This document shows positions 32,991-45,115 of a stretch of DNA of 64,000 nt, piece after piece. The DNA is from a virus. The DNA is taken from the IMG/VR virus record IMGVR_UViG_3300027804_000039, positions 96,001 to 160,000 of that record. One strand, 5' to 3'. Within the stretch, counting starts at the first letter, position 1. Each line of letters opens with the position of its first letter. The translations under genes were made by a program, and so were the position numbers. A model generated the notes under the pieces. That model saw only the letters and a list, made by a program, of their open reading frames with translations, did no database searches and was not told where the DNA came from.

Positions 32991-33049
32991 ATGCGTATGC
33001 GTAGGGGATGATTGGGGGAATGGGGGGTAACCATTTTAACTATGCCCAT
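32717..33049 (-). CDS. hypothetical protein (true start probably internal)
   Basis: C-terminal half looks protein-like; N-terminal half overlaps repeats. Confidence 0.45.
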   Translation of the reverse strand: MGIVKMVTPHSPNHPLRIRIAAGPSLYTASTLVYSSGVSSQLYTRMLIICLRSRSSWTIQDSLGFLTQRLHGWFSIRNDCVDYFVAEDRAYLLYLIDPQLERYSHLDYID

Positions 33050-33306
33050 TTTGACCTCGAGTCAAGAAATTTTTTCTACCATATCTGCGGCACCATAGCC
33101 TAGATTGTGGCTTGAAATCGTGAATCTGTCACACTTTTCAACACTTTTCAACACTTTTTTGCACTTTTCTAATTCTTGGCCTTGCGTATAGACATCATAG
33201 CGCATGGTGCCATGATCTAGATCACACTTTACTTGCACTTTTTCACACAGTATATACACGGTGTCAATTCTGCTAACCACACATAGAATATCAAACCGTT
33301 AAATAC

Positions 33307-33525
33307 ATGATGAAGCAGTATAATATAGTTCCTCTAGCACATATACACGTTAAGGACACAGACTATAATGTCTATATCAGTATGTGCATTGACACACGAC
33401 AAATGCATATATTCAAATATAATGATACATGTTGTGATTATGAAGTCTTTGGCACTGAGGGAGAAGCTTGTAGATTTATAGAGCAACCCATGCCTGGAAC
33501 TCATTCAAAAAATCGACGCAGATAA
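33307..33525 (+). CDS. hypothetical protein
   Basis: TAAATA 1 nt before ATG. Confidence 0.6.
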   Translation: MMKQYNIVPLAHIHVKDTDYNVYISMCIDTRQMHIFKYNDTCCDYEVFGTEGEACRFIEQPMPGTHSKNRRR

Positions 33526-33705
33526 AGGCCTGGGGCCTGTTTGGGCTTTCAGCAAAACCTTCAAGCCCAAACCATTTTTCGTTTTCTTAATAACCCGTTT
33601 GTCAACCTGGTCGTTGTTTTAAAGCAACGGTTAGTTGGCGCTTACCAACTTAAAAGGTGCTGCGCACCCTCCACGTCCATCCCCTGTATAGCAGTTCGAA
33701 CCTAT
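33520..33705 (-). ncRNA. putative structured small RNA 1
   Basis: Follows TTGACA-17-TATAAT (33740-33712); G-rich core plus several hairpins. Confidence 0.5.
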
Positions 33706-33807
33706 GCCCAAATTATATGCGATTTTGGGCAAAGTGTCAAATTGGGCTAAAGACCCTACTGTCATCATGGACTTGACAGTTTGGGTTCAAAATGCTATAA
33801 TTTGGAC

Positions 33808-34128
33808 ATGACGAAAAGAACTGCTCGTAAAGACTCAAACTATGTTATCTACGCTGCTATACATGAAGGCAATGTATACGTGGGCTTGACCCGTAAAGGC
33901 TCTACTACAGTGGCAAAGGCTGTAAAGGAGCGGTGGCGTAAGCATATTTCGCGGGCACGGCACGAAGACAGACAGTGGGTGATTTATCAGTACATCAAGG
34001 GCGGAGCATGGACTGACTGGGAACATGAGGTTTTGGCTGTGATACGCGGGCGAGCTGAGGCTTATGCATGGGAGCGCGAGTACGTCAAGCAGCATCAGCC
34101 CACACTCAACGATCAGTACATTGGTTGA
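33808..34128 (+). CDS. small GIY-YIG-like endonuclease
   Basis: VIY...YVGLT...R..H...E...LN; ATG 6 nt after -10 (leaderless). Confidence 0.7.
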   Translation: MTKRTARKDSNYVIYAAIHEGNVYVGLTRKGSTTVAKAVKERWRKHISRARHEDRQWVIYQYIKGGAWTDWEHEVLAVIRGRAEAYAWEREYVKQHQPTLNDQYIG

Positions 34129-34184
34129 CAGGGTTGTTCAATCCTGTTATAATATAGGCTACAGTAAACGAAAAGGAGCGAACT

Positions 34185-34886
34185 TTGAAATTACTTTCCA
34201 CAGCAAATCCCAAAATCCAAAAGGGTACGAAGCTTGGTTACTTGAGCTTTATCCTGCACCTCGCACCTGCTACACTCAGTGGCAAAGAGACTTGCCCTAA
34301 GCGCACCGCTGGTTGTACTAGTGCATGTCTTAACACCGCAGGGCGTGGTGGCATGTTCCGCAAGGGCGAAAACACCAACGTGATCCAGCAGGCTCGCATT
34401 CGCAAGACTAAAATGTTCTTTGAGCAGCGCGATGCATTTATGGCCCAGCTGGAGAAAGACATTAAATTGGGCATTAAGCAGGCTGCGAAGCTGGGCCTTA
34501 CTCCTGTATTCCGTTTGAATGGTACTAGCGACTTGACTTGGGAGAAGTATGGCATTATTGAAAAGTTCCCCCAAGTACAGTTCTATGACTATACTAAGGT
34601 CTTGGGCCGTAAGGTTGCACACCTGCAGAACTACCACTTGACCTTTAGCGCAGCTGATGGCAACGACGCTGATGTGGCAAAGGCTGTGGCGCAGGGCATG
34701 AATGTGGCTGCGGTGTTTGACAAGCTGCCCAGCGAGTACATGGGCAAGACTGTAATTAATGCAGACGAGCACGATTTGCGCTTTTTGGACCCTAAGGGCG
34801 TGATTGCTGGCTTGAAGGCTAAGGGCAAGGCCAAAAAGGACACTAGCGGATTCGTGCGCCGTGTGATTGACATCCAGGCAGTTTGA
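34185..34886 (+). CDS. GP88-like Cys-cluster protein
   Basis: CPKRTAGCTSACL, RLNGTSD, FYDYTK, YHLTFS; TTG start. Confidence 0.7.
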   Translation: MKLLSTANPKIQKGTKLGYLSFILHLAPATLSGKETCPKRTAGCTSACLNTAGRGGMFRKGENTNVIQQARIRKTKMFFEQRDAFMAQLEKDIKLGIKQAAKLGLTPVFRLNGTSDLTWEKYGIIEKFPQVQFYDYTKVLGRKVAHLQNYHLTFSAADGNDADVAKAVAQGMNVAAVFDKLPSEYMGKTVINADEHDLRFLDPKGVIAGLKAKGKAKKDTSGFVRRVIDIQAV

Positions 34887-34926
34887 GCTTATAATATACA
34901 CTTCAACAATGCAAATAGGAGCGACT

Positions 34927-35205
34927 ATGAACATTCAGGAAATCAACCGTGCTATCATTTCGGGTACATTCACTGCCCAAGAACTTGAAAGCATTCAGGA
35001 CGCTGTCAAGTTCGCAAGAGCCAAGACTGCCCGTGTTAACTCTGTGACCTTCCACGCAGGTGATACTGTAAAAATTACCCATGCCAAGCTGGGCGGTACT
35101 GTAGTAGGCACCATCCGTAAGATTAAGATTAAAAAGGCTGACGTGTTCATTCCCGGCAAGAACGTCACTTACAATGTTCCCCTTTCTATGTTGGAGGCTG
35201 TATGA
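34927..35205 (+). CDS. hypothetical early protein
   Basis: Own promoter and GGAGCG RBS. Confidence 0.8.
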   Translation: MNIQEINRAIISGTFTAQELESIQDAVKFARAKTARVNSVTFHAGDTVKITHAKLGGTVVGTIRKIKIKKADVFIPGKNVTYNVPLSMLEAV

Positions 35206-35429
35206 AATCAATCAAAGAAATCTTCCCTGGCATTATGATCCTGGACAAAGAGCCAGTTGAAGTACAAAACCCATTCTCGGGCGAGTGCGCGGTCTTGGAC
35301 CCTGAAGAGGTTGCTGTCTACGACTACATCAAAGGCTGTGAGCTCATGGGCGACTACACGGGTGTTCGCAAGGGCTTGGATTGGTTTAGCCGTAAGAACC
35401 CTGAAGCCTACATGACCCTGCTTGATTGA
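35202..35429 (+). CDS. hypothetical early protein
   Basis: ATGA coupling. Confidence 0.75.
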   Translation: MKSIKEIFPGIMILDKEPVEVQNPFSGECAVLDPEEVAVYDYIKGCELMGDYTGVRKGLDWFSRKNPEAYMTLLD

Positions 35430-35479
35430 CAGACTAGCCCAAACCTGTTATACTGTAGTCATAGTGAAAGGAGCGACAT

Positions 35480-35758
35480 ATGATGTTCACGCTAGAAGTA
35501 TATAAAAAGGATGCTCGTACTAAAAAGGGCGAGCGATTGGTACATAAGGCAGACCATGACATTAGCAATAGTGGCCCTGCTCTGAATATGTTCGAGCATA
35601 CTGTCAAGCATACATGGCGAGCTGGGCAGGGTTATCGTTATGAAATCCATGTGACTTATGTAACGAAAAAGAACATGATGACGGGTAATGAGTTTGTCGA
35701 GCGTTACGATACGCCTTACTACTGCTCGCCCAGTTCTGAAACCTACTGGAGCATGTAA
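35480..35758 (+). CDS. hypothetical early protein
   Basis: Own promoter and GGAGCG RBS. Confidence 0.8.
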   Translation: MMFTLEVYKKDARTKKGERLVHKADHDISNSGPALNMFEHTVKHTWRAGQGYRYEIHVTYVTKKNMMTGNEFVERYDTPYYCSPSSETYWSM

Positions 35759-35847
35759 AACAAAACCCGGCTGTCAACCGGGTTTTTCATTTGATCAGGG
35801 TTTAGATTCGACGCCCAGCCTCCACGTCCACCCCCCTTTGTTCGACA
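35756..35847 (-). ncRNA. putative small RNA 2
   Basis: TTGACT-17-TATACT (35881-35853), G-rich core, terminator AACCCGG/CCGGGTT plus T run. Confidence 0.55.
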
Positions 35848-35987
35848 TTGTTAGTATAACAAAACCCGCCCAATCAGTCAACCAAAAGAACAATACCCGA
35901 GTAAACCCTAAGGTCTTTAGCACCAAAAGGTTGACGTTTTGGGCGGACGGCGCTATAATTGCAGCATAAGTTAACAAGGAGCGCAAT

Positions 35988-36230
35988 ATGCAAACAAACT
36001 GCCTAGCCCGTGCAACGCTTGTAAAAAGCCGCAAGCTGCAAAACACACAATTCTACAAACTCAAAGTCGCGTTTAATGTAACGCAAGTTAACCCTGCTAC
36101 AGGCAAGTTTATTTTCCCTGTACAAAAACAATGCGCTTATGTAAGCGGGGACATACAAATTGACGAGCTAGGGCGTGTGCTTGTAAACGTGCAGCAAGTT
36201 ATACGCAGCAAAAACATAGAACTTGTGTAA
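35988..36230 (+). CDS. hypothetical early protein
   Basis: Own promoter and GGAGCG RBS. Confidence 0.75.
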   Translation: MQTNCLARATLVKSRKLQNTQFYKLKVAFNVTQVNPATGKFIFPVQKQCAYVSGDIQIDELGRVLVNVQQVIRSKNIELV

Positions 36231-36308
36231 GCTGTAGGGTCTTTATAGCGCACACTTGACATTTTGGGCAGGGTGCGCTATAATACAAACACTTAGAAGG
36301 AGCGTAAG

Positions 36309-36473
36309 ATGACTGTTAAAGAGCAACTGTTTGCTAAAATTGCAGAGCTGGAAAACCTGCTGTTGGAAGCTGAGTGCGACGGTGTACAGCTGGCAGAAGG
36401 TGACGATGTGCTGGGCGAGCTGACTAGCACACTAAACAGGCTTGCTGACGAGATTGACTACTACGTGGATTAA
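36309..36473 (+). CDS. 54 aa acidic early protein
   Basis: Hand-translated MTVKEQLFAKIAELENLL...DYYVD; own promoter and GGAGCG RBS. Confidence 0.75.
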   Translation: MTVKEQLFAKIAELENLLLEAECDGVQLAEGDDVLGELTSTLNRLADEIDYYVD

Positions 36474-36503
36474 TGCTATAATTGTTTTTTGAAGGAGCGA
36501 TAG

Positions 36504-36866
36504 ATGAGTAAAGTACTTTTTAGCACTAGTGGCGACGGCTACTGGAGCAACGTGCAAAAAACTGTAGAGATTACAGACATGAAGCTGGGCTATGTTAGCG
36601 ACGAGGGCGACTTTGGCGAGTTGCGAGTGTACTTTAACACTGACACTTGGGACGTTAATACAGACGGCTTAATTTACACAGACGGCCTGTTTAAACAGGA
36701 GCTGATGGCGTTTATTAAAGAGCATGGGCTTGTGGTAGACTTGTGCTACAGCGAGCAAGGTATGCAAGGCGATGACTATGTGTCGCTGGACGTGGGCAAA
36801 GACTTTTTGGACAGCTGGGCTGCTAAGTTTGGCGTAGACAGCATTAAGGAGGCTATGTATGCTTAA
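36504..36866 (+). CDS. hypothetical early protein
   Basis: Own promoter and GGAGCG RBS. Confidence 0.8.
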   Translation: MSKVLFSTSGDGYWSNVQKTVEITDMKLGYVSDEGDFGELRVYFNTDTWDVNTDGLIYTDGLFKQELMAFIKEHGLVVDLCYSEQGMQGDDYVSLDVGKDFLDSWAAKFGVDSIKEAMYA

Positions 36867-37053
36867 CGACAAACAAAACAAACTGTTACTTGAAGCTGTA
36901 GACTTACTGCACCGCGCGGATGCATTAATGCAGCAAGGGTGGGGCAAGGAAGAAGGCGAAGAGTTGTACTGTATACACAATGCCATTGAGTGCGCAGCTG
37001 ACGACATATTGGATTACATACAGGCAAACAACCCAGAGGACATGGATGCTTAA
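36859..37053 (+). CDS. small acidic protein
   Basis: Coupled ORF. Confidence 0.7.
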   Translation: MLNDKQNKLLLEAVDLLHRADALMQQGWGKEEGEELYCIHNAIECAADDILDYIQANNPEDMDA

Positions 37054-37270
37054 CAATACACTACAGTGGGCAGGCACTGTATGTCTGCTCACTATGTATG
37101 TCCTAATGAGCTTTTACCCACACCTCCACCCTTGGAACATTGCGGCTGGAGTACTTGGAGGCATTTGCTACTTGGCTTGGACTGTGCGGGTGCGGAATAC
37201 TCCACAATTAATTGTCAATGCAGTTGCAATAACCATTGGGCTTGCAGGGTTATTCAAGGCATGGGGTTGA
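37046..37270 (+). CDS. small three-TM membrane protein
   Basis: Start MLNNTLQW; three hydrophobic segments. Confidence 0.7.
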   Translation: MLNNTLQWAGTVCLLTMYVLMSFYPHLHPWNIAAGVLGGICYLAWTVRVRNTPQLIVNAVAITIGLAGLFKAWG

Positions 37271-37321
37271 CAGTTTGGGCAAGCTCTGCTATACTATAGG
37301 CTAAGTTAACAAGGAGCGAAC

Positions 37322-37594
37322 ATGTTAAACATTTCTAAAATTGTCAAAACCTACTCAGGCAAAATGGGTGGTTGTATGTGCGGGTGCCGGGGCAAGTATT
37401 CCTACACCGCAGACGGAGCTGCTAACCACGGCCCGGGCTACAATGTAGAGGACAGCGTCAACGAACGCTCTGTACGCATTATCGCTAAGAAGGTGCTAGC
37501 CAATCCCAACTGCAAGTGGGAGGACAACATTGCCTACGTCGAGGACAAGGTTAAAGGCCGCATCCAAGTAATCTTTTTTAAGGAAGCCCTGTGA
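37322..37594 (+). CDS. hypothetical early protein
   Basis: GCMCGCRGKY; own promoter and RBS. Confidence 0.8.
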   Translation: MLNISKIVKTYSGKMGGCMCGCRGKYSYTADGAANHGPGYNVEDSVNERSVRIIAKKVLANPNCKWEDNIAYVEDKVKGRIQVIFFKEAL

Positions 37595-37839
37595 TTACTG
37601 CTGAAGCACTTCAAACCCTCATCAACTACCGTGCCCCTGAACTGACACGCTTGGTCAAGGAGGGCGGGTACAAAGGCCCTGCGTTCAGCTCATGCCGCTT
37701 CCTGGGCATTACTAACGGCGGGCAACTGTGCTACCTTGCTGTCTTCTTAGTGGAGGGTGGCACTGACAGCGCAAAGGTGTTTGTTACCCACAGAGCTGGT
37801 AGGGTTTCTGCAGAGGTTGACAGGAACTCAGTTTGGTAA
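37591..37839 (+). CDS. hypothetical early protein
   Basis: GTGA coupling. Confidence 0.7.
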   Translation: MITAEALQTLINYRAPELTRLVKEGGYKGPAFSSCRFLGITNGGQLCYLAVFLVEGGTDSAKVFVTHRAGRVSAEVDRNSVW

Positions 37840-37871
37840 TATAATATACACATACTAACAAGGAGCGAACC

Positions 37872-38108
37872 ATGCGAGTAGAAGACCTTATTGCAGAACT
37901 GCAACTCATGCCACAGGACGCAGAAGTCCACTTCCAATACAATTACGGAGACCACTGGCGCACCCAGGTTGCTCCTACTGTCGACAGCGTAGAGATGGGT
38001 CTTGTCAAGTACAGTGACTACCACCGTATGCCCAAAGTCGTAGAACCCGACTGGGACGAAGAGGACGCTGACCAAGTTGACGGCAAACAAGTTGTCTTAA
38101 TTGGTTGA
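37872..38108 (+). CDS. hypothetical early protein
   Basis: MRVEDLIAELQLMPQDAEV; own promoter and RBS. Confidence 0.8.
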   Translation: MRVEDLIAELQLMPQDAEVHFQYNYGDHWRTQVAPTVDSVEMGLVKYSDYHRMPKVVEPDWDEEDADQVDGKQVVLIG

Positions 38109-38168
38109 CAACTAACCCAAATCCAGTTATAATACACACATCAACAGCAACTTAGGAGCGAAACTAAA

Positions 38169-38636
38169 ATGGCTACACGTTCAACTATTGCCCTGGAATA
38201 CGCAGACGGTACAGTGGACAAGATTTACTGTCACTGGGACGGCTACTTGGATAACAACGGCAAACTCCTGTTTGACAACTATAAGGACCCGTTCAAAGTG
38301 CAACGCCTTATGGACTTGGGTGACGTAAGCTCACTGGGCCCTAACATTGGCGACAAGCACGACTTCGACTGCCCTTTCCCTTACGGTACTCCTGAGTATG
38401 TTAAGTGGACTGACGACAAGCGCGAAGTGACTACGTTCTACGGACGCGACCGTGGCGAAACTGGTACGGGTGCCCAGCGTTATAAGGACTATGCGGACTA
38501 TCGTGCCAACGCACAGTTTGAGGAATACAACTACATCCTCCGCAAAGACGGCAACTGGTATGTGGAGTTTTACGGTGACTTTGACGGCTTGCTGTCTGAG
38601 GCATTTGAATTTCAGCGAGCACAGGAGGAAGCATGA
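38169..38636 (+). CDS. hypothetical early protein
   Basis: MATRSTI...YCHWDGY; own promoter and RBS. Confidence 0.8.
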   Translation: MATRSTIALEYADGTVDKIYCHWDGYLDNNGKLLFDNYKDPFKVQRLMDLGDVSSLGPNIGDKHDFDCPFPYGTPEYVKWTDDKREVTTFYGRDRGETGTGAQRYKDYADYRANAQFEEYNYILRKDGNWYVEFYGDFDGLLSEAFEFQRAQEEA

Positions 38637-38821
38637 CAGGCTTTCAAAGCAAAAGGGCTTCGGCCCTTGACAAGCTCAACACAGAATGGATTGACTTGCG
38701 TGAACGAGTGCTAGAACAAATCGTCAAAGATGTTAACGACGGCGACTTGACTGCCATCGAAGAACTGTTGGTCTACTGCGACGAAGAAGCTATGAAACAA
38801 TTTCTACCGGAGGAAGCATGA
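38633..38821 (+). CDS. small acidic protein
   Basis: ATGA coupling. Confidence 0.7.
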   Translation: MTGFQSKRASALDKLNTEWIDLRERVLEQIVKDVNDGDLTAIEELLVYCDEEAMKQFLPEEA

Positions 38822-38997
38822 GTAAACTAGCAGAGCTGGCCTACGACATTGAGCAACTGTACATTGAAGGCCTGCACCCTACGAAGATTGCTCGCGAACT
38901 GAACTGTCCTTTGAGTATAGTATACGATTGGCTTGAAGCGCAGAGCCTAGACGAAGGTACAGAAGAAGCCAGCCCGTTCAACACTATTAACAGCTAG
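38818..38997 (+). CDS. 59 aa helix-turn-helix-like protein
   Basis: Hand-translated, not in ORF track: GLHPTKIARELNCPLSIVYDWL. Confidence 0.7.
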   Translation: MSKLAELAYDIEQLYIEGLHPTKIARELNCPLSIVYDWLEAQSLDEGTEEASPFNTINS

Positions 38998-39048
38998 TTC
39001 GCTCCTAGCAACCCTGAGGGGGCCCAGGGCATTGGCCCCCATTCTTTT
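38993..39048 (+). terminator. anti-RBS hairpin followed by switchable terminator
   Basis: GCTAG-TTCGCTC-CTAGC, then GGGGGCC/GGCCCCC plus ATTCTTTT, with competing CCCTG/CAGGG stem. Confidence 0.65.
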
Positions 39049-39102
39049 GGTTGACAACAACTTCTTTTGGTGCTATAATATACACATACTAAGGAGAGCG
39101 AC

Positions 39103-39336
39103 ATGGCAACTATCCAGATTGACGGACTAAACAAGACCCAGCGAGCCCTAGCAGACATCATGTGGGGCATGGACAGCAAGGATCAGGTAACTGCATTCAT
39201 CAGCAGCCTACGTGGACAGCAACAGCGTGATGCCCAAACCGTCCTGGAATTGATGCTGTTGGCCATTTGGGACGAGTGCGAAGATACCCTGGAAGCCAGC
39301 CAGGTTATTGGTCAGTTCCGGTTGACTGGTATCTAA
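39103..39336 (+). CDS. hypothetical early protein
   Basis: Own promoter; AAGGAGAGCGAC RBS variant. Confidence 0.8.
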   Translation: MATIQIDGLNKTQRALADIMWGMDSKDQVTAFISSLRGQQQRDAQTVLELMLLAIWDECEDTLEASQVIGQFRLTGI

Positions 39337-39379
39337 TTTGGTGCTATACTATAGGCTAAGTTAAACAAAAGGAGCGACA
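39337..39379 (+). repeat. 43-nt promoter-leader repeat, copy 1
   Basis: Identical to 41647-41689. Confidence 0.9.
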
Positions 39380-39380
39380 G

Positions 39381-39644
39381 ATGAACATTGCAACTATTGA
39401 GCAGTATGTGGATGGTAAAAACAAGTGGGGCGCCCTGTTTGGCAACAAACCTCTGAGCCTGCTGGATGCAGCAGACCGCCAGAAGATTGCAGACAGCATT
39501 GACGCAGACCTCAGCCCTGAGAACTTGACCTGCGATGGCGAACTGCCTCGCTCACAAGTTCAGCAACGCTACCAGTTCCTGACTCGTTGTGCCCAGGAGT
39601 TGAAGAGCATTGATCCTAATGTAACCTTTTACGAATATGGCTGA
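39381..39644 (+). CDS. hypothetical early protein
   Basis: Own promoter and RBS. Confidence 0.8.
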   Translation: MNIATIEQYVDGKNKWGALFGNKPLSLLDAADRQKIADSIDADLSPENLTCDGELPRSQVQQRYQFLTRCAQELKSIDPNVTFYEYG

Positions 39645-39729
39645 ACTTATCACTTACATCCTGCTCCGCATCATCCAGGTAGGTATCTTGGTGTTTGCGG
39701 TAGCAGTATTCATCAACGGTTTTTTCTAA
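39637..39729 (+). CDS. 30 aa single-TM peptide
   Basis: Hand-translated MAELITYILLRIIQVGILVFAVAVFINGFF. Confidence 0.5.
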   Translation: MAELITYILLRIIQVGILVFAVAVFINGFF

Positions 39730-39738
39730 GGAGCGAAT

Positions 39739-40341
39739 ATGCCTAATTGGTGCAATAACACAGTAGAAGTATATCATCCGGACCCATCCAAGCTCAAGGC
39801 TTTGGTAGAGGCGTTTAACGAAGGTAAGTTCTGTAATCATATCATTCCAGTGCCCAAAGAGCTCACTGAGACTGTAGCAGGACATTGCGGCGAGGGTTAT
39901 GCTCAGGACTTGAATCAGTTCAAGATGGAACTGAACCTAAAATACTTTGGTGCCAAAGACTGGTATGACTTCTGTGTTGCACGATGGGGCACTAAATGGG
40001 ATGTAGGCGGCGACAATGCCTACAGCGATCCTGTAGAGCTCAAAGAAGGCCAGAATGATGTGACCTTGGGCTTTGATAGTGCATGGAGCCCTCCTGTTGG
40101 TGTATATGAGGCTATGGTTGAGCAAGGCTTCAGCGTTCGTGCATACTACTATGAGCCTGGCATGGCATTTGCTGGTGTATGGTGGGACGGTGATGATAAT
40201 TACTTTGAATACGGTGGCTTGACCAGCGAGCAGATCAAAGAGGAACTGCCCAGCGATTTGGACGAGTGCTTTGGCATCAGTGAGTCAGTCGCAGAATGGG
40301 AAGCAGAAAACGAAGAAGAGGAAGAACATGACAGCAAGTAA
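39739..40341 (+). CDS. DUF1281/YubB-like ferredoxin-fold protein
   Basis: MPNWCNN, WYDF...WGTKW, FDSAWSPP, YEPGMAFAG. Confidence 0.75.
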   Translation: MPNWCNNTVEVYHPDPSKLKALVEAFNEGKFCNHIIPVPKELTETVAGHCGEGYAQDLNQFKMELNLKYFGAKDWYDFCVARWGTKWDVGGDNAYSDPVELKEGQNDVTLGFDSAWSPPVGVYEAMVEQGFSVRAYYYEPGMAFAGVWWDGDDNYFEYGGLTSEQIKEELPSDLDECFGISESVAEWEAENEEEEEHDSK

Positions 40342-40391
40342 AGAAGCAATGGATCAACTAGACGCTATCATAGCTCGATGGATTAAGGATC

Positions 40392-40667
40392 GTGAGTAAG
40401 CTCGAATTCTACTGTAGACCATTGGTTGCCTTTGATCCTAACAACAAGGATCATAGGCGCTGGTACTACCAATTCATTGAATATGGCGGCTGGGGCAAGT
40501 GCCCGGTTAGGTTCATTTGCCCTGAGGATTCGGGCTCAGACTTGACCATTATGATCCGCAACCAATTGATTGATTTCTATGTCCGAAAGGAGTTCGAACG
40601 AGCAAACAAGAAAACGGTTGTCCAAAATGTAAAGAAAACGGTTGACAAGCAACCAAAAAAGCGTTAA
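40392..40667 (+). CDS. hypothetical early protein
   Basis: 91 aa ORF. Confidence 0.7.
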   Translation: MSKLEFYCRPLVAFDPNNKDHRRWYYQFIEYGGWGKCPVRFICPEDSGSDLTIMIRNQLIDFYVRKEFERANKKTVVQNVKKTVDKQPKKR

Positions 40668-40727
40668 AATACGAACATGCTAAGGAAACTGGCATATAAC
40701 TTAAACCACAGAAAGAGAGATACACAC

Positions 40728-41096
40728 ATGGCTACAGATAAACTTTTTACCGTTTGCGGCGTTTCAAAACATCCCGACCTGGGCTATAAGGTTCGATTTG
40801 CTACCGACATCATGCGAATCAAGAACCTCGCCAAGTCAGGTCATGAGGACATTCGTCTTGCTGAGCTGGACACTGCTGTCACCAAGTATGAAGCAGTTAC
40901 ACAGATCAAGGGCATGGACGAGTTTCAAGATGCCGCAGCACAGTCTGCAATCGCTGAGTACCTTGAGGACAATGCTCCTAAGGCACCTAAGGCTAAGGCA
41001 GCTCCTAAAGCTAAGACCGTCCCTGCTGCTAAGGCTCCTAAGGCCAAGGCTGCTGCTAAGACTGTTGACGCAGACCTCGAAGACGCTCCATTCTAA
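40728..41096 (+). CDS. protein with Lys/Ala/Pro-rich (H1-like) tail
   Basis: APKAPKAKAAPKAK...; likely start MATDK. Confidence 0.7.
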   Translation: MATDKLFTVCGVSKHPDLGYKVRFATDIMRIKNLAKSGHEDIRLAELDTAVTKYEAVTQIKGMDEFQDAAAQSAIAEYLEDNAPKAPKAKAAPKAKTVPAAKAPKAKAAAKTVDADLEDAPF

Positions 41097-41099
41097 GCA

Positions 41100-41303
41100 A
41101 TGCGGTACGGGTGCTCTCTAAGTGACGATTACACACCTAACCGTGTGGTCATCCGTGACTTTGAGAGTTCACCCAAAGGCCGCGTTCTATGCGTCATTGC
41201 TAGGGACAACCTGCACGAAGCGAACCAAATAGCACAGAATCTTTGTGACCTTTTAAACCATCAATACCAAAATGAGCTGGACTCAATACGAAGTATGGGC
41301 TGA
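41100..41303 (+). CDS. hypothetical protein
   Basis: 67 aa ORF. Confidence 0.6.
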   Translation: MRYGCSLSDDYTPNRVVIRDFESSPKGRVLCVIARDNLHEANQIAQNLCDLLNHQYQNELDSIRSMG

Positions 41304-41460
41304 ACTAGACGGCCATCAGGAACTTCTTGAAACTACACACAGTAAGAAAGAAGCTATTCAGATAGCAGAGAAACACTTTAATGACGGGTGCGACTTTGTT
41401 GAAGTATTTGAAGAAACCGCAGATGGCGACTACTCATCCATCAAACAGCTAAGTAGATAA
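41272..41460 (+). CDS. small acidic protein
   Basis: 62 aa ORF. Confidence 0.65.
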   Translation: MSWTQYEVWAELDGHQELLETTHSKKEAIQIAEKHFNDGCDFVEVFEETADGDYSSIKQLSR

Positions 41461-41466
41461 CACTTA

Positions 41467-41544
<78 letters not shown>

Positions 41545-41547
41545 ATT

Positions 41548-41624
41548 CTGCCCGTAGCTCAACTGGATAGAGCAACAGCCTTCTAAGCTGTAGGTCGGGG
41601 GTTCGAGTCCCTCCGGGCAGGCCA
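41548..41624 (+). tRNA. tRNA-Arg(TCT)
   Basis: Acceptor CTGCCCG/CGGGCAG, arm ACAGC-CTTCTAA-GCTGT, GTTCGA, encoded CCA. Confidence 0.93.
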
Positions 41625-41646
41625 CTTTCGGTTGACACACTCCTTG

Positions 41647-41689
41647 TTTGGTGCTATACTATAGGCTAAGTTAAACAAAAGGAGCGACA
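41647..41689 (+). repeat. 43-nt promoter-leader repeat, copy 2
   Basis: Identical to 39337-39379; near copies at 41945 and 37288. Confidence 0.9.
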
Positions 41690-41691
41690 CA

Positions 41692-41919
41692 ATGGCATTC
41701 ACCCTAGAATCTCGAGACAACTACGATACCCGTCACGGCGGCCCTTTTGACCGTGGATCAGCTGACAGTTACTATGGGCGTGGTCGTAACCCTCACTACT
41801 ATGTTGGTGGCACTGGCACCAGCGAGCGAGTAGAGACCCTAACACCCGCAGAAGTCCAGGCCTACCTAGCAGGCTACCAGTACAACGAGCAGTTTGGCGA
41901 TAAGAAAGACTGGGGCTAA
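41692..41919 (+). CDS. hypothetical early protein
   Basis: HGGPFDRGSADSYYGR; own promoter and RBS. Confidence 0.8.
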   Translation: MAFTLESRDNYDTRHGGPFDRGSADSYYGRGRNPHYYVGGTGTSERVETLTPAEVQAYLAGYQYNEQFGDKKDWG

Positions 41920-41984
41920 ACGGTTGACAACTTCTGCCCAATTTGCTATACTGTAGGCTAAGTTAAACAAAAGGAGCGAACCTT

Positions 41985-42380
41985 ATGATGCTAGTAATCG
42001 ACACGCAGTACATGGAAAACTACGGCGCCCACGATTGGGACGGCAAGGGCGAGTGCCCACAGTACTGGAAAGCCAAGGGCGGCAGTGAGTTCAAGGTTAC
42101 TGGCATTCCCCGCAACGTCGATGTAGACCATGTGCTGTTCATGCTGGGCCAGGAAGTTCAGTGGAGTGACAACGGTTCAACCAGCACCGTTATTGGCACA
42201 CACATCGAGGAGGATGACTACCTCAGCTGGTTTGAGAAGTCACAGATGGAGTACGATGGTCGTGTGGTGTTCGCAGAGCCCAGCATCAGCTATGCAGACC
42301 TTTGCATTGAAGAGCAGGCACGTCAGCAAGAATACGCTGAAATTGCCGCAGACCTTGACGCAATCTACTACGGAGCTTAA
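41985..42380 (+). CDS. hypothetical early protein
   Basis: ENYGAHDWDGKGECPQYWKAKGG; own promoter and RBS. Confidence 0.8.
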   Translation: MMLVIDTQYMENYGAHDWDGKGECPQYWKAKGGSEFKVTGIPRNVDVDHVLFMLGQEVQWSDNGSTSTVIGTHIEEDDYLSWFEKSQMEYDGRVVFAEPSISYADLCIEEQARQQEYAEIAADLDAIYYGA

Positions 42381-42381
42381 T

Positions 42382-42570
42382 ATGAAATCAGCAGGCTTTT
42401 TGTTGGCAGTTGGATTCCTACTTACCTTTGGTGCTGTAGGCGGTATTGAAAACGATGGTCCACTGGTGGACTGTTTGATTGTAGCAGTCCTGGGCCTGGC
42501 CATCATGGGCTGTGGATCTTTGATGTTGCACAAGGCCAAGCGCCCGGTTGACAACCCCACGCTTTGGTAA
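42382..42570 (+). CDS. two-TM membrane protein
   Basis: Likely start MKSAGF. Confidence 0.7.
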   Translation: MKSAGFLLAVGFLLTFGAVGGIENDGPLVDCLIVAVLGLAIMGCGSLMLHKAKRPVDNPTLW

Positions 42571-42608
42571 TATAATACATACTTCAACAACGCAAACAGG
42601 AGCGAAAC

Positions 42609-42959
42609 ATGTCTGCACTCAACTACACCAAAGAGCAAGTCGAGCAAATCGTCAAAGAAGCACAGACTGCTGCATACAAGGCCGCAATGGAGTTCTTCTA
42701 CGATAAGTTGGGCGGCAAGGACCAATATGCTTGTGGCTTTGCTTGGGTTAACATTTACAAAGTCCGAGGCAACACCAAAGTTGGCATGGCTCTGAAAGCT
42801 GCAGGCATTCGTCCCAGCTATCAAGGCGGCCTGCAGATGTGGAACCCAAGTGGCATGGGTGTGCAGAATGTGGACACTCTGGAAGCGGGTGCAGAAGCAG
42901 CAGCGGCAGTGTTTACCAAGTATGGTTTTGAAGCCTACGCAGGTAGCCGACTAGATTGA
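42609..42959 (+). CDS. hypothetical early protein
   Basis: CGFAWV...EAGAEAAAAV; own promoter and RBS. Confidence 0.8.
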   Translation: MSALNYTKEQVEQIVKEAQTAAYKAAMEFFYDKLGGKDQYACGFAWVNIYKVRGNTKVGMALKAAGIRPSYQGGLQMWNPSGMGVQNVDTLEAGAEAAAAVFTKYGFEAYAGSRLD

Positions 42960-43014
42960 CACAAGAGCCGCAAGGCTCTATAATTAATGTTTTAAACACA
43001 CAGGAGCGCAATAA

Positions 43015-43908
43015 ATGGGACGACCCGCTGGTAGCAAGAACAAGGTTATGACTCTGGAAAGCCTTAAGAGCATGGCTGTAGAATCTAAGAGCCTAGAGCA
43101 GGCCAAGATTGAAAAGGACCTCAGCAAAGAGTCTGACGAAAGCATTATGGCACGTTTGGGCCAACGTTTTGAAATCCTTGAAGACATGACTCGCGCTGTA
43201 AAGAAAGGCGACGTTCGTGCAATGATTGTAACTGGTCCTCCAGGCGTTGGCAAGAGCTTTGGTGTTGAAAAGGTTCTGGGCAAGCATGATGTGTTTGCTG
43301 ATGTAGCCAATGACTCAAAGCTGAAAAAGTACGAAGTAGTCAAGGGCGCCATGTCAGCCATTGGCTTGTACAAGAAGCTGTATGAGTTTAGTGATAAGAA
43401 GTGTATCCTAGTGTTTGATGACTGTGACAGTGTGCTATTGGACGACTTGAGCCTTAACATTCTAAAGGCTGCACTAGACTCTAGCAAGAAGCGTACCATT
43501 CACTGGAACACTGACAGCAGACTGTTACGTCAAGAAGGTGTGCCCAATAGCTTTGAGTTCAAGGGCGGTGCTATCTTTATCAGTAACATCAAGTTCGATC
43601 ACGTTAAGAGCAAGAAGCTGCGTGACCATTTAGAAGCATTGGAAAGCCGTTGCCACTACTTGGACTTGACTATTGATACTGTACGTGAGAAGCTGCTGCG
43701 TATACGTCAAGTGGTACGTGACTGTGGCATGCTGGATGACTATGCATTTGATGATAGTACTAAGACAGAAGTAGTAGAGTTTATAGCTGCCAACGCTGCT
43801 CGTATGCGTGAGCTGAGCCTGCGTATGGTGCTAAAGGTAGCGGACCTGCGTAAGAGTATGCCCACTAACTGGCAGGCCGTTGCTGAAGTAACTTGTATGA
43901 GGCACTAA
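43015..43908 (+). CDS. AAA+ family ATPase
   Basis: Walker A GPPGVGKS, Walker B LVFDDCD, ALESR arginine finger. Confidence 0.85.
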   Translation: MGRPAGSKNKVMTLESLKSMAVESKSLEQAKIEKDLSKESDESIMARLGQRFEILEDMTRAVKKGDVRAMIVTGPPGVGKSFGVEKVLGKHDVFADVANDSKLKKYEVVKGAMSAIGLYKKLYEFSDKKCILVFDDCDSVLLDDLSLNILKAALDSSKKRTIHWNTDSRLLRQEGVPNSFEFKGGAIFISNIKFDHVKSKKLRDHLEALESRCHYLDLTIDTVREKLLRIRQVVRDCGMLDDYAFDDSTKTEVVEFIAANAARMRELSLRMVLKVADLRKSMPTNWQAVAEVTCMRH

Positions 43909-43922
43909 GACCTCAGCAAGGT

Positions 43923-44009
43923 GGCCACTGACCCGATTCGCTCCCGGTGATGTGGTCGAGTTGTGCCCCAGGATATCCGATTCGCTCCCGGTGTCCTGGG
44001 GATTTTTTT
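43923..44009 (+). ncRNA. two-hairpin RNA element with ATTCGCTCC loops; second hairpin is a terminator
   Basis: 17-nt direct repeat CCGATTCGCTCCCGGTG (43933, 43977); 13-bp stem plus T7. Confidence 0.7.
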
Positions 44010-44204
44010 GATTGAATGATCGAAAAAAGATTTCGAAATGGTGAGGGGGGTCGGGGTATATATTATATTTTTGTTGTTTTTTACAACAGCGCAAGCCTAA
44101 ATTTTCACCCCATATAGGTGTAAAATCACCACCCTGAGAGGAAATAGTAGCTATTTTAAATTTTTCGCGCACCAATTTTTTTAGGCTACAGGACCCATTC
44201 TGGA

Positions 44205-44858
44205 CTAAACGTCCGCGCCCAGTCTACGCAACATTGTATAAGCATTCTTCTTAAATGCTTCAAATCCTGCGCTATGTGCCACTGGAGCCAGTCCTTGATT
44301 GATGTCTGCAATAGCAAACTTTCCCACTCCAATTTCTCTAACATCATTTAGCTGTGTTCTAATATCGCCTATGGTTGCGTCCAGGCGTTCAGCAGTACGT
44401 TTTAAGTTGGGCATACCATAGTACTTGCTGATACCGTTTTCTGTACCTTTGTTAATCCATCCATCCGGACCAATGCCAAATATAGGATACCACTTGCCAG
44501 CTGCTACACCTTTTTTACCTGCATCTCCAGTACTCAAATAAAATGGTACACGCACACCGTCCACTGGCACTATTACTATAGCTCGCCCGTCATAGTTAAC
44601 CACTGGTACCGCACGTTCCACAAAAGTATTCTTTGACTTGTCCCATATTTTAGTTGCCATGGGCTCTAGCTTGACTCCAGCTTGACTGGCTCTTGATGCT
44701 ATTTGATCAGCTAATATAGCCACCTTTGGTGCTGCAGTTGCTGCTGCATTGCCCATTTTAGGCACAACCTTTGTGGCTGTGTCAGCAGTCTTTTGTGCAA
44801 ATGTCTTCATTAGAGCATTTACCATAGCTGCGTTTTCAATGATTTCTTTGACTTTCAT
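44205..44858 (-). CDS. hypothetical protein, possible head-internal protein
   Basis: Likely start MKVKEIIEN at 44858. Confidence 0.7.
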   Translation of the reverse strand: MKVKEIIENAAMVNALMKTFAQKTADTATKVVPKMGNAAATAAPKVAILADQIASRASQAGVKLEPMATKIWDKSKNTFVERAVPVVNYDGRAIVIVPVDGVRVPFYLSTGDAGKKGVAAGKWYPIFGIGPDGWINKGTENGISKYYGMPNLKRTAERLDATIGDIRTQLNDVREIGVGKFAIADINQGLAPVAHSAGFEAFKKNAYTMLRRLGADV

Positions 44859-44861
44859 GGT

Positions 44862-44871
44862 TAAATATTTA
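44862..44871. promoter_or_regulatory. palindromic bidirectional late-type promoter
   Basis: TAAATATTTA between divergent ATGs at 44858 and 44873. Confidence 0.7.
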
Positions 44872-44872
44872 T

Positions 44873-45115
44873 ATGCAACAATACTATGTACTAACTTTAG
44901 AACCCAGATGTGGCGAAGTGTTTCGCTGGATAGAGTCACATCAACTGGACTACGAAGTACACTTGAATCGTACACGCTTTTGGATACCCAAAGATAGTCT
45001 GTTACAAACAGAGTTTTTACTGCGTTTTAGTGAATGCTGTGGTACTGTGGATGAATCATTAGATACACTTACTGGCATGCCCAAAGTTGGTGTGCTAGAT
45101 TCTAGGCCCAAGTAA
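44873..45115 (+). CDS. Trp-rich paralog family member (distant)
   Basis: RWIESH...RFWI...TEFLLRFS. Confidence 0.65.
   Translation: MQQYYVLTLEPRCGEVFRWIESHQLDYEVHLNRTRFWIPKDSLLQTEFLLRFSECCGTVDESLDTLTGMPKVGVLDSRPK

Follow-up and report, generated by a model that had tools for sequence, protein, structure and literature searches.

A probable RNA module directed against early ribosome-binding sites in an uncultured giant phage and its relatives

Introduction

Cuckoo RNAs (RSs0680a-d / CcsR, ar14, SmelA075/A099) are modular small RNAs (sRNAs) of the Alphaproteobacteria, and consist of two to four adjacent hairpins (PMC4615179). Their stems are variable, each loop carries the anti-Shine-Dalgarno-like sequence CCUCCUCCC, and they share a transcript with the gene 5' of them; a terminator-like hairpin comes after them (PMC4615179). 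Here we describe a hairpin of comparable architecture, at positions 38993-39009 of a 64,000-nucleotide stretch of phage DNA (bases 96001-160000 of the 191-kb IMG/VR record IMGVR_UViG_3300027804_000039; this whole stretch is called the window, and positions are counted from its first base). The hairpin stands at the end of an operon in a block of early genes, and its loop is complementary to a "tag" that extends the Shine-Dalgarno (SD) sequence at many early ribosome-binding sites (RBSs). We propose that it is probably a copy of a conserved anti-RBS RNA module, located at the 3' ends of early transcripts, which would repress early translation.

Cuckoo RNAs are the nearest described system in architecture, combining variable stems with one common anti-SD-like loop motif. 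The loop sequences differ, however (CCUCCUCCC in cuckoo RNAs, UUCGCUCC here, and GCCCUC or UUGCUCC in other clades), which sets the phage hairpins apart from the cuckoo family. Unlike the cuckoo loop, the phage loop matches the private tag of one temporal class of genes, and changes with that tag between clades; moreover, 38993-39009 is a single hairpin, lying over a stop codon. The nearest systems in logic are OppZ and CarZ of Vibrio cholerae, sRNAs derived from 3' untranslated regions (3'UTRs), which repress their own operons and depend on RNase E and Hfq (PMC7398697). Their seed is likewise just 5' of the operon terminator and pairs with translation-initiation regions, giving negative feedback. 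Each of them has one target site, in its own operon, whereas the target of the phage hairpin is shared by about 15 genes of many transcription units. A cis version of anti-SD pairing from a 3'UTR is provided by the icaR mRNA of Staphylococcus aureus, in which the sequence UCCCCUG pairs with the SD region of the same mRNA and blocks its translation (PMC3868564). This involves a single gene and a generic SD sequence, whereas the phage complementarity reaches 4-5 nucleotides past GGAG into a class-wide tag.

Two systems of T4-type phages are also relevant. The endoribonuclease RegB of T4 inactivates early mRNAs at the GGAG of their SD sites (PMC3014915), and is a functional analog in that a feature of early SD sequences allows inactivation of the whole class; the T4 effector is a protein nuclease, whereas the candidate effector here is an RNA loop. 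PeSL promoter-terminator cassettes are recombination modules composed of a stem-loop, a sigma-70-like early promoter, an SD sequence and a start codon (PMC2839356, PMC4122927). The segment 39018-39105 of the window resembles them, with a stem-loop directly 5' of a near-consensus early promoter. PeSL stem-loops, however, are defined by the sequence of the stem, no conserved anti-RBS loop has been reported for them, and the hairpin at 38993-39009 lies outside the cassette. A limited literature search found no published description of the tag/loop system, and searches for the literal motif returned only primers and unrelated matches. What appears to be new is a private, clade-specific tag on a temporal class of phage genes, matched by loops at the ends of transcripts.

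Results

The hairpin and its complementarity to early RBSs

The hairpin (38993-39009, + strand) has a 5-bp stem, GCTAG (38993-38997) with CTAGC (39005-39009), and a 7-nucleotide loop, TTCGCTC (38998-39004; UUCGCUC in the RNA). It was picked out in the initial annotation of the window, which also observed, correctly, that the TAG stop codon (38995-38997) of a 59-residue open reading frame (ORF) sits within the 5' arm. The predicted energy is -5.6 kcal/mol, with pair probabilities of 0.97-0.99 in the stem, and the loop core is predicted to be unpaired with a probability of 0.84. The same annotation noted that GTTCGCTCCT (38997-39006, with a single + strand copy) is a 10-nucleotide complement of AGGAGCGAAC, and that the latter is found at four early RBSs. 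We find exact copies at 34174, 37312, 37861 and 41972, each with a start codon just 3' of it, and copies with one mismatch at 38154, 39729 and 42598. With up to one mismatch allowed there are 10 matches to the 10-mer in place of the 2.16 expected, a number that none of 100 shuffles reached; for the 8-mer TTCGCTCC the window has 10 matches against 1.06 expected. The distribution of the 8-mer over the two strands is striking. All seven of its - strand copies in the window are RBSs. Its + strand copies (38998, 43937 and 43981) are the only three in the 191-kb record; all are hairpin loops, and all stand at or beside terminators of the early block.

The other two + strand copies lie 3' of the gene for a 297-residue AAA ATPase. 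One (43933-43947, + strand) reads CCG-AUUCGCUCC-CGG within a longer, variable outer stem. The second (43966-44009, + strand) has the same CCG-AUUCGCUCC-CGG at 43977-43991, carried in the loop of a terminator stem, CCCCAGGA/UCCUGGGG, which is followed by a U7 tail. The predicted probability of an unpaired core is 0.84, 0.89 and 0.96 for the three hairpins in order. An Rfam search of 33000-45000, at E values up to 10, found no family for any of them; the lone weak match in this region, to BjrC68, is unrelated, and its 16.2 bits fall short of the gathering score of 39.

Two other identities for the hairpin were considered and rejected. With its 5-bp stem, 7-nucleotide loop starting UUCG and G-C closing pair, it could mimic a tRNA T-arm, but the loop of the other copies is 9 nucleotides long; the base at T-arm position 58 is also a C, in place of the conserved A. 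A symmetric DNA operator for a helix-turn-helix (HTH) protein was discarded because the arms vary around an invariant, asymmetric centre, which is the reverse of a dimer operator.

The tag on the early RBSs

The early block is a run of small + strand genes at 33.7-44.0 kb of the window. Its near-consensus sigma-70 promoters number at least 17, of which nine are a perfect TTGACA-17-TATAAT. Between 34174 and 43011 on this strand, GGAGCG is found at 15 sites: 34175, 34918, 35470, 35978, 36299, 36494, 37313, 37862, 38155, 39371, 39730, 41681, 41973, 42599 and 43003. Most of them lie 20-30 nucleotides 3' of a consensus -10 box. GGAGCG thus marks 15 of the 23 GGAG-type RBSs of the early block and 4 of the 112 in the rest of the genome (Fisher p = 5e-11). 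Over the clade, 356 distinct promoter-proximal RBSs give the consensus A(.91) GGAG C(.92) G(.81) A(.73) A(.68), after which conservation drops to about.4. The bases 3' of GGAG do not extend the complement of the canonical 16S 3' end, and ordinary SD pairing is therefore no explanation for them.

The predicted net pairing gain of the 60-nucleotide tail carrying the hairpin averages -8.9 kcal/mol with the early RBS regions and -4.5 kcal/mol with 50 other RBSs of the window, a gap that is expected by construction, yet shows, as far as such predictions go, that the loop is able to open the interaction.

Outside the early block, and beyond the window itself, three - strand genes have a GGAGCGAA RBS, at window coordinates -23667, -25437 and -27217 (about 72333, 70563 and 68783 in G000:C1). 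The RBS at -23667, CCGGGAGCGAATC, is perfectly complementary to the core of the twin hairpins, GATTCGCTCCCGG. That at -27217 is CCGGGAGCGAAATCGG, which could itself form a CCG...CGG hairpin presenting the tag in its loop, and has a TAAATA box just 5' of it; the same arrangement is found in L148 (1547-1572) of the relative G003. From their sequence, these - strand tagged RBSs could be special kissing-loop targets.

A family of hairpins in related phages

Homologs of the AAA gene were used to collect 80 loci, and the early block was also inspected in three relatives with complete or large sequences. Exact scans of IMG/VR with a 15-mer and a 14-mer returned true relatives mixed with contigs that have no GGAGCGA tag; since chance matches are expected at 14-15 nucleotides (on a rough estimate of the collection size), these scans served to find contexts and not to measure prevalence.

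The early-gene strand of related contigs holds 116 distinct TTCGCTCC contexts. The recurring layout is a run of units, each consisting of a promoter, a short leader, GGAGCGAA(C) and ATG, occasionally with one or two hairpins in the middle of the block and nearly always with two hairpins 3' of the AAA gene, the latter being carried in the loop of the terminator. Among the 56 unique loci whose AAA identity is 69% or more, 55 have the core within 300 nucleotides 3' of the AAA stop codon, and 46 have two or more copies of it.

The sequences of the stems differ while their pairing is retained, and the register of the stem relative to the core is constant. In our alignment of the family (A1), 92.5% of the cells of the inner stem pair, against at most 54% in controls with a slid partner, and there are 36 double changes compared with 4.3 in shuffles. 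The variants include CCG/CGG, GUG/CAC, UUG/CAA, CUG/CAG, GCG/CGC, CUAG/CUAG and CCUAGG/CCUAGG, and the outer stems differ nearly from locus to locus. The predicted probability of being unpaired averages 0.85 for the core and 0.25 for its flanks. The copy at 38993-39009 has the core UCGCUCC (38998-39005), a variable and covarying stem, and a loop complementary to the tag of its own phage, as expected for the family; it scores 25.0 bits (E 5e-4) against the covariance model (R1), a match that is partly by construction as the copy is in the seed alignment.

The covariance model found only three loop variants on the + strand, all of them AAUCGCUCC (L028, L030 and L043), and the near-identical ortholog of the 38993-39009 hairpin, in L297, has the loop AGUCGCUC. 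Every variant keeps UCGCUCC, and the change faces the least conserved position of the tag. The suggestion in the initial annotation that the loop is under selection is therefore well founded: the same core is found in 116 distinct hairpins whose stems are different and covary, and there are three tag/loop pairs in three groups of phages.

The hairpin recurs behind homologs of the 59-residue HTH-like protein that are only 53-58% identical (L096, L104/L110 and L114), and also behind genes of other kinds (L103 and L105). The corresponding region of G003 has CCUAGG-AUUCGCUCC-CCUAGG and a CCG/CGG copy. Recurrence behind diverged HTH genes and behind other genes, with differing stems, implies that the loop is retained as the module changes place or is built anew. 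In L096, L104 and L110 the CTAG hairpin is followed by a conserved structured stretch of about 100 nucleotides that includes GGGCTAGCC-ATA-GGTTAGC, with no terminator. In many HTH homologs (L278, L279, L288, L292, L299, L336, L340, L354 and others) the stop codon is a TGA that belongs to the TTGACA of the next promoter, and homologs with this overlap have no terminator between the end of the gene and that promoter.

Loop and tag change together between clades

The most informative comparison is between clades. In the clade that includes the window (clade A), the RBS tag is GGAGCGA(A) and the loop (T)TCGCTCC. A search with the AAA protein of L076 gathered a sister clade of 23 unique loci, in which the early RBS tag is GAGGGC(A) and the loop is (T)GCCCTC, its exact reverse complement. 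Each of these loci has 2-4 hairpins with a GCCCUC loop in the 340 nucleotides after the AAA gene, and TCGCTCC is absent from this region in all 23. The sister-clade hairpins come in 57 distinct contexts with variable stems, and their core has a predicted probability of being unpaired of 0.88. A third state is found in contig L394, which has the tag GGAGCAA at eight RBSs and three hairpins with the loop UUGCUCC; a search for its relatives returned clade A only.

An unbiased screen of 122 unique loci was also conducted, in which each locus was represented by the downstream 7-mer with the most reverse-complement copies in the RBS windows. The only pairs that came up in more than one locus were the GGAGCGA type (87 loci) and GAGGGCA (18 loci), and GGAGCAA came up in one. 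The best count per locus averaged 3.9, compared with 1.56 when a control region within the gene was used. It is difficult to see what other than RNA pairing would give three different sequences that are each matched by their complement. It is thus highly likely that the loop pairs with the early RBS tag as RNA, and we go no higher because the events in which both changed are few and at the level of clades.

More distant relatives were reached via the 155-residue gene of the same operon (G006-G009). They have tags of the AGGAGCA type, and no complementary hairpin was found in the 20-kb pieces, so that a conserved C after GGAG needs no hairpin partner by itself; this C appears to be conserved more widely than the hairpin system. 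In G007, G009 and G010 the AAA gene directly abuts the next gene, and they provide no covariation test. L154 and L155 (from G009 and G007) have the early RBS extension AAGGAGCA(C/G), again with no complementary hairpin in their 20-kb pieces.

The terminator next to the hairpin

The stem-loop at 39018-39048 (+ strand) is predicted to be an intrinsic terminator: GGGGGCC (39018-39024) and GGCCCCC (39034-39040) form a stem of seven G-C pairs across a 9-nucleotide loop, with a predicted energy of -15.8 kcal/mol, and are followed by the U-rich tail AUUCUUUU (39041-39048, ATTCTTTT, with U at five of eight positions). A scan for consensus terminators missed it because of the 9-nucleotide loop. On the predicted fold, we regard it as an ordinary intrinsic terminator, which would end the operon that starts at 38105.

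The initial annotation had instead proposed that the hairpin is coupled to a terminator/antiterminator switch, in which the loop, by pairing with an RBS in cis (38155) or in trans, selects one of two stems and gates read-through into the next operon. The second stem, CCCTG (39012-39016)/CAGGG (39025-39029), does exist in the sequence at 39012-39029 (+ strand), with no support for a function. The two stems are indeed mutually exclusive, sharing 39018-39024 and 39025-39029; the alternative is the fold predicted for the nascent RNA as long as the terminator still lacks its 3' arm, and it is kept in the near-identical ortholog L297. The proposal fails on other grounds, however. The alternative stem is predicted at -7.9 kcal/mol, and at equilibrium only the terminator forms (probability about 0.99, against 0.0). 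The hairpin and the alternative stem do not have a base in common, and therefore pairing of the loop cannot reach the choice of stem. L102, L098, L103 and L105 do not have the alternative stem, the hairpin being followed there by unrelated stem-loops, and neither do the twin copies at 43933-44009; in L297, the only relative that has it, a compensatory change is found in the terminator stem (GGGGCCC/GGGCCCC) and none in the alternative. We found neither a competing conserved structure nor a sensor coupled to the choice of structure. Finally, a separate, perfect promoter at 39051 serves the next gene, so that control of read-through would have little to regulate. A switch of this kind is very improbable, and the alternative stem may simply form transiently during transcription, as at many terminators.

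That next promoter (39051-39079, + strand) is a TTGACA-17-TATAAT with an extended -10 TG, followed by an RBS at 39091 and an ATG at 39103; together with the terminator it gives the order of elements of a PeSL-like cassette. Elsewhere in the early block, a bidirectional terminator is likely at 35762-35790, where ACCCGG-CTGTCAA-CCGGGT is flanked by T-runs on both strands.

The operon and its phage

The operon starts at a sigma-70 promoter with 12 of 12 matches to TTGACA-17-TATAAT (38105-38133, + strand), and contains three small genes, followed by the hairpin and then the terminator; transcripts begun at promoters farther 5' would pass through the same genes to the hairpin. The RBS of the first gene (a 155-residue ORF, 38169-38636) carries the tag AGGAGCGAAA (38154-38163, + strand), of which nine of 10 bases are complementary to the hairpin. 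The last gene (38818-38997, + strand) encodes the 59-residue HTH-like protein, and its start overlaps the stop codon of a 62-residue ORF (38633-38821) as ATGA. It scores 24.2 bits against the Pfam family HTH_23, for which the cut-off is 24.6, and over 80 phage contigs encode homologs of it. The 59-residue ORF is a real gene, and the ATGA overlap couples it translationally to the ORF before it.

CheckV puts the completeness of the 191-kb record at about 50%, and complete related records are 364-383 kb long, from which we conclude that the source is an uncultured giant phage. A nucleotide search with 37800-40400 found no similarity to cultured phages. At the protein level, the AAA ATPase, which is encoded by the last gene of the early block (43015-43908), has its nearest relative from a cultured phage in the Pseudomonas jumbo phage PA5oct, at 46% identity. 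PA5oct does not have the motif (1 forward and 0 reverse copies, the same as the control), and its published transcriptome is therefore of no use for the question of the hairpin. The early block also contains genes for tRNA-Met (CAT) and tRNA-Arg (TCT), at 41467-41624, with a promoter directly 3' of them at 41632.

Discussion

Proposed mechanism

On the basis of these observations, we propose the following mechanism for the module. A short stem of variable sequence would hold open a loop with the core UCGCUCC, which at 38993-39009 takes the form UUCGCUC closed by a G-C pair. The loop would act as the Watson-Crick complement of the private extension of early SD sequences, A-GGAGCGAA-C. The tail formed by hairpin and terminator may stay on the mRNA or come off as a fragment of about 55-60 nucleotides, which the terminator stem-loop would probably shield from exonucleases. 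In either form, the loop could pair with GGAGCGA(A) at early RBSs, in trans or on its own transcript (at the RBS at 38155), and the duplex would compete with binding of the 30S subunit. Synthesis of early proteins would then fall as early transcripts accumulate, providing an RNA-based feedback or shut-off in which repression grows with the amount of early RNA.

The anatomy of the tail resembles that of an sRNA derived from a 3'UTR, with a seed in the loop, a G+C stem and a U tract. The position of the seed is also that of such sRNAs, before the terminator of its own operon and with the 5' arm overlapping the last stop codon. The YUNR U-turn was reportedly described by Franch and colleagues in 1999 as a motif of antisense loops that pair fast, and we take the UUCG at the start of the hairpin loop to fit it. 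A ribosome that terminates at the stop codon, which is within the 5' arm, would cover the hairpin. A bolder version of the proposal can be entertained as a possibility, though a doubtful one: each clade may have a private translation code made of RNA only, with the SD extension on its early genes and the complement in loops at the 3' ends, giving shut-off that needs no protein factor. At 38993-39009, ribosomes terminating at the HTH stop codon would then melt or cover the arm, and the loop would be active only on untranslated transcripts or fragments.

A number of observations weigh against a repressive module. The tag is not exclusive to early genes, since GGAGCGA is found at four others, three of which appear to be late and are on the opposite strand. 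Just seven of the 10 complementary bases at 38993-39009 are in the loop, the other three being in the stem. The copy in the middle of the block is facultative, and is found in about three of 61 distinct contexts 3' of HTH-gene homologs. The terminator-like site at 35762-35790 (+ strand) has no anti-RBS hairpin. The covariation of loop and tag consists of three states at the level of clades, one of which is represented by one contig, and thus of few independent events, and the distant relatives with an AGGAGCA-type tag have no complementary hairpin in the DNA examined. Finally, no Hfq encoded by the phage was found.

Alternative explanations

The same pairing could have the opposite sign, with the loop shielding early RBSs, perhaps against a GGAG-cutting nuclease similar to RegB, or stabilising or sorting early mRNAs. 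All of the evidence for pairing fits this equally well, and there are precedents: T4 RegB cuts the GGAG of early SD sites, with an influence of the 3' context (PMC3014915), and in the hbs mRNA of B. subtilis an interaction between the 5' and 3' UTRs governs the action of ribonucleases on the mRNA (PMC5737220). A duplex of 8-10 bp on the SD sequence would however block the ribosome as well, so that protection would come at the cost of translation, and we consider this explanation unlikely. A search for RegB (PF10715) gave no match, the positive control likewise being without a match. Alternatively, the hairpin could be a site for a protein in the nascent RNA, either boxB/nut-like or the operator of a phage protein, and the complementarity to the tag incidental. 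An invariant loop on variable stems, placed just 5' of terminators or inside them, does have the look of a hairpin recognised by a protein, and the order of small HTH gene, hairpin and terminator is one that we take to recall cro-nutR-tR1 of lambda. Such a site would nevertheless leave unexplained why loop and tag are exact reverse complements in three groups with three sequences, and most homologs of the HTH gene are without the hairpin; it is a decidedly unlikely explanation.

The hairpin might also have no function as RNA, being either a chance palindrome or a by-product of recombination of PeSL-like cassettes, beside an ordinary terminator. The layout of 39018-39105 is that of a PeSL cassette, which is a substrate for recombination in T4-type phages (PMC4122927), and the hairpin copy is sporadic among the contexts of the HTH gene. 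Neither origin would account for a core that stays invariant over 116 contexts whose stems and flanks differ, with compensatory changes, for the strand-specific enrichment, or for loops and tags that co-vary between clades. The stem covariation, the loop/tag pairs of the clades and the 7-mer screen already contradict a lack of function, which has next to no probability left. A module that represses early translation by pairing with the tag therefore remains the explanation that we prefer.

Significance

The end of the early programme is only partly understood in large lytic phages. For T4, a review describes the shut-down of early promoters as "not completely understood", to which RegB adds the inactivation of mRNAs at GGAG sites (PMC3014915). 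For the annotation of this genome, the hairpin becomes a functional-looking element that is more than a part of a terminator, the riboswitch-like reading is removed, and the window adds a third copy, with a different stem, to the family. The three natural tag/loop pairs are possible orthogonal translational repressors, and the idea can be tested in E. coli because the promoters are consensus sigma-70 promoters and the parts are short. If the proposal is true, these phages would have a module that recognises a class-specific RBS tag, which would be the RNA counterpart of RegB, and the tag and its loop would form a natural orthogonal tag/anti-tag pair that evolves in step.

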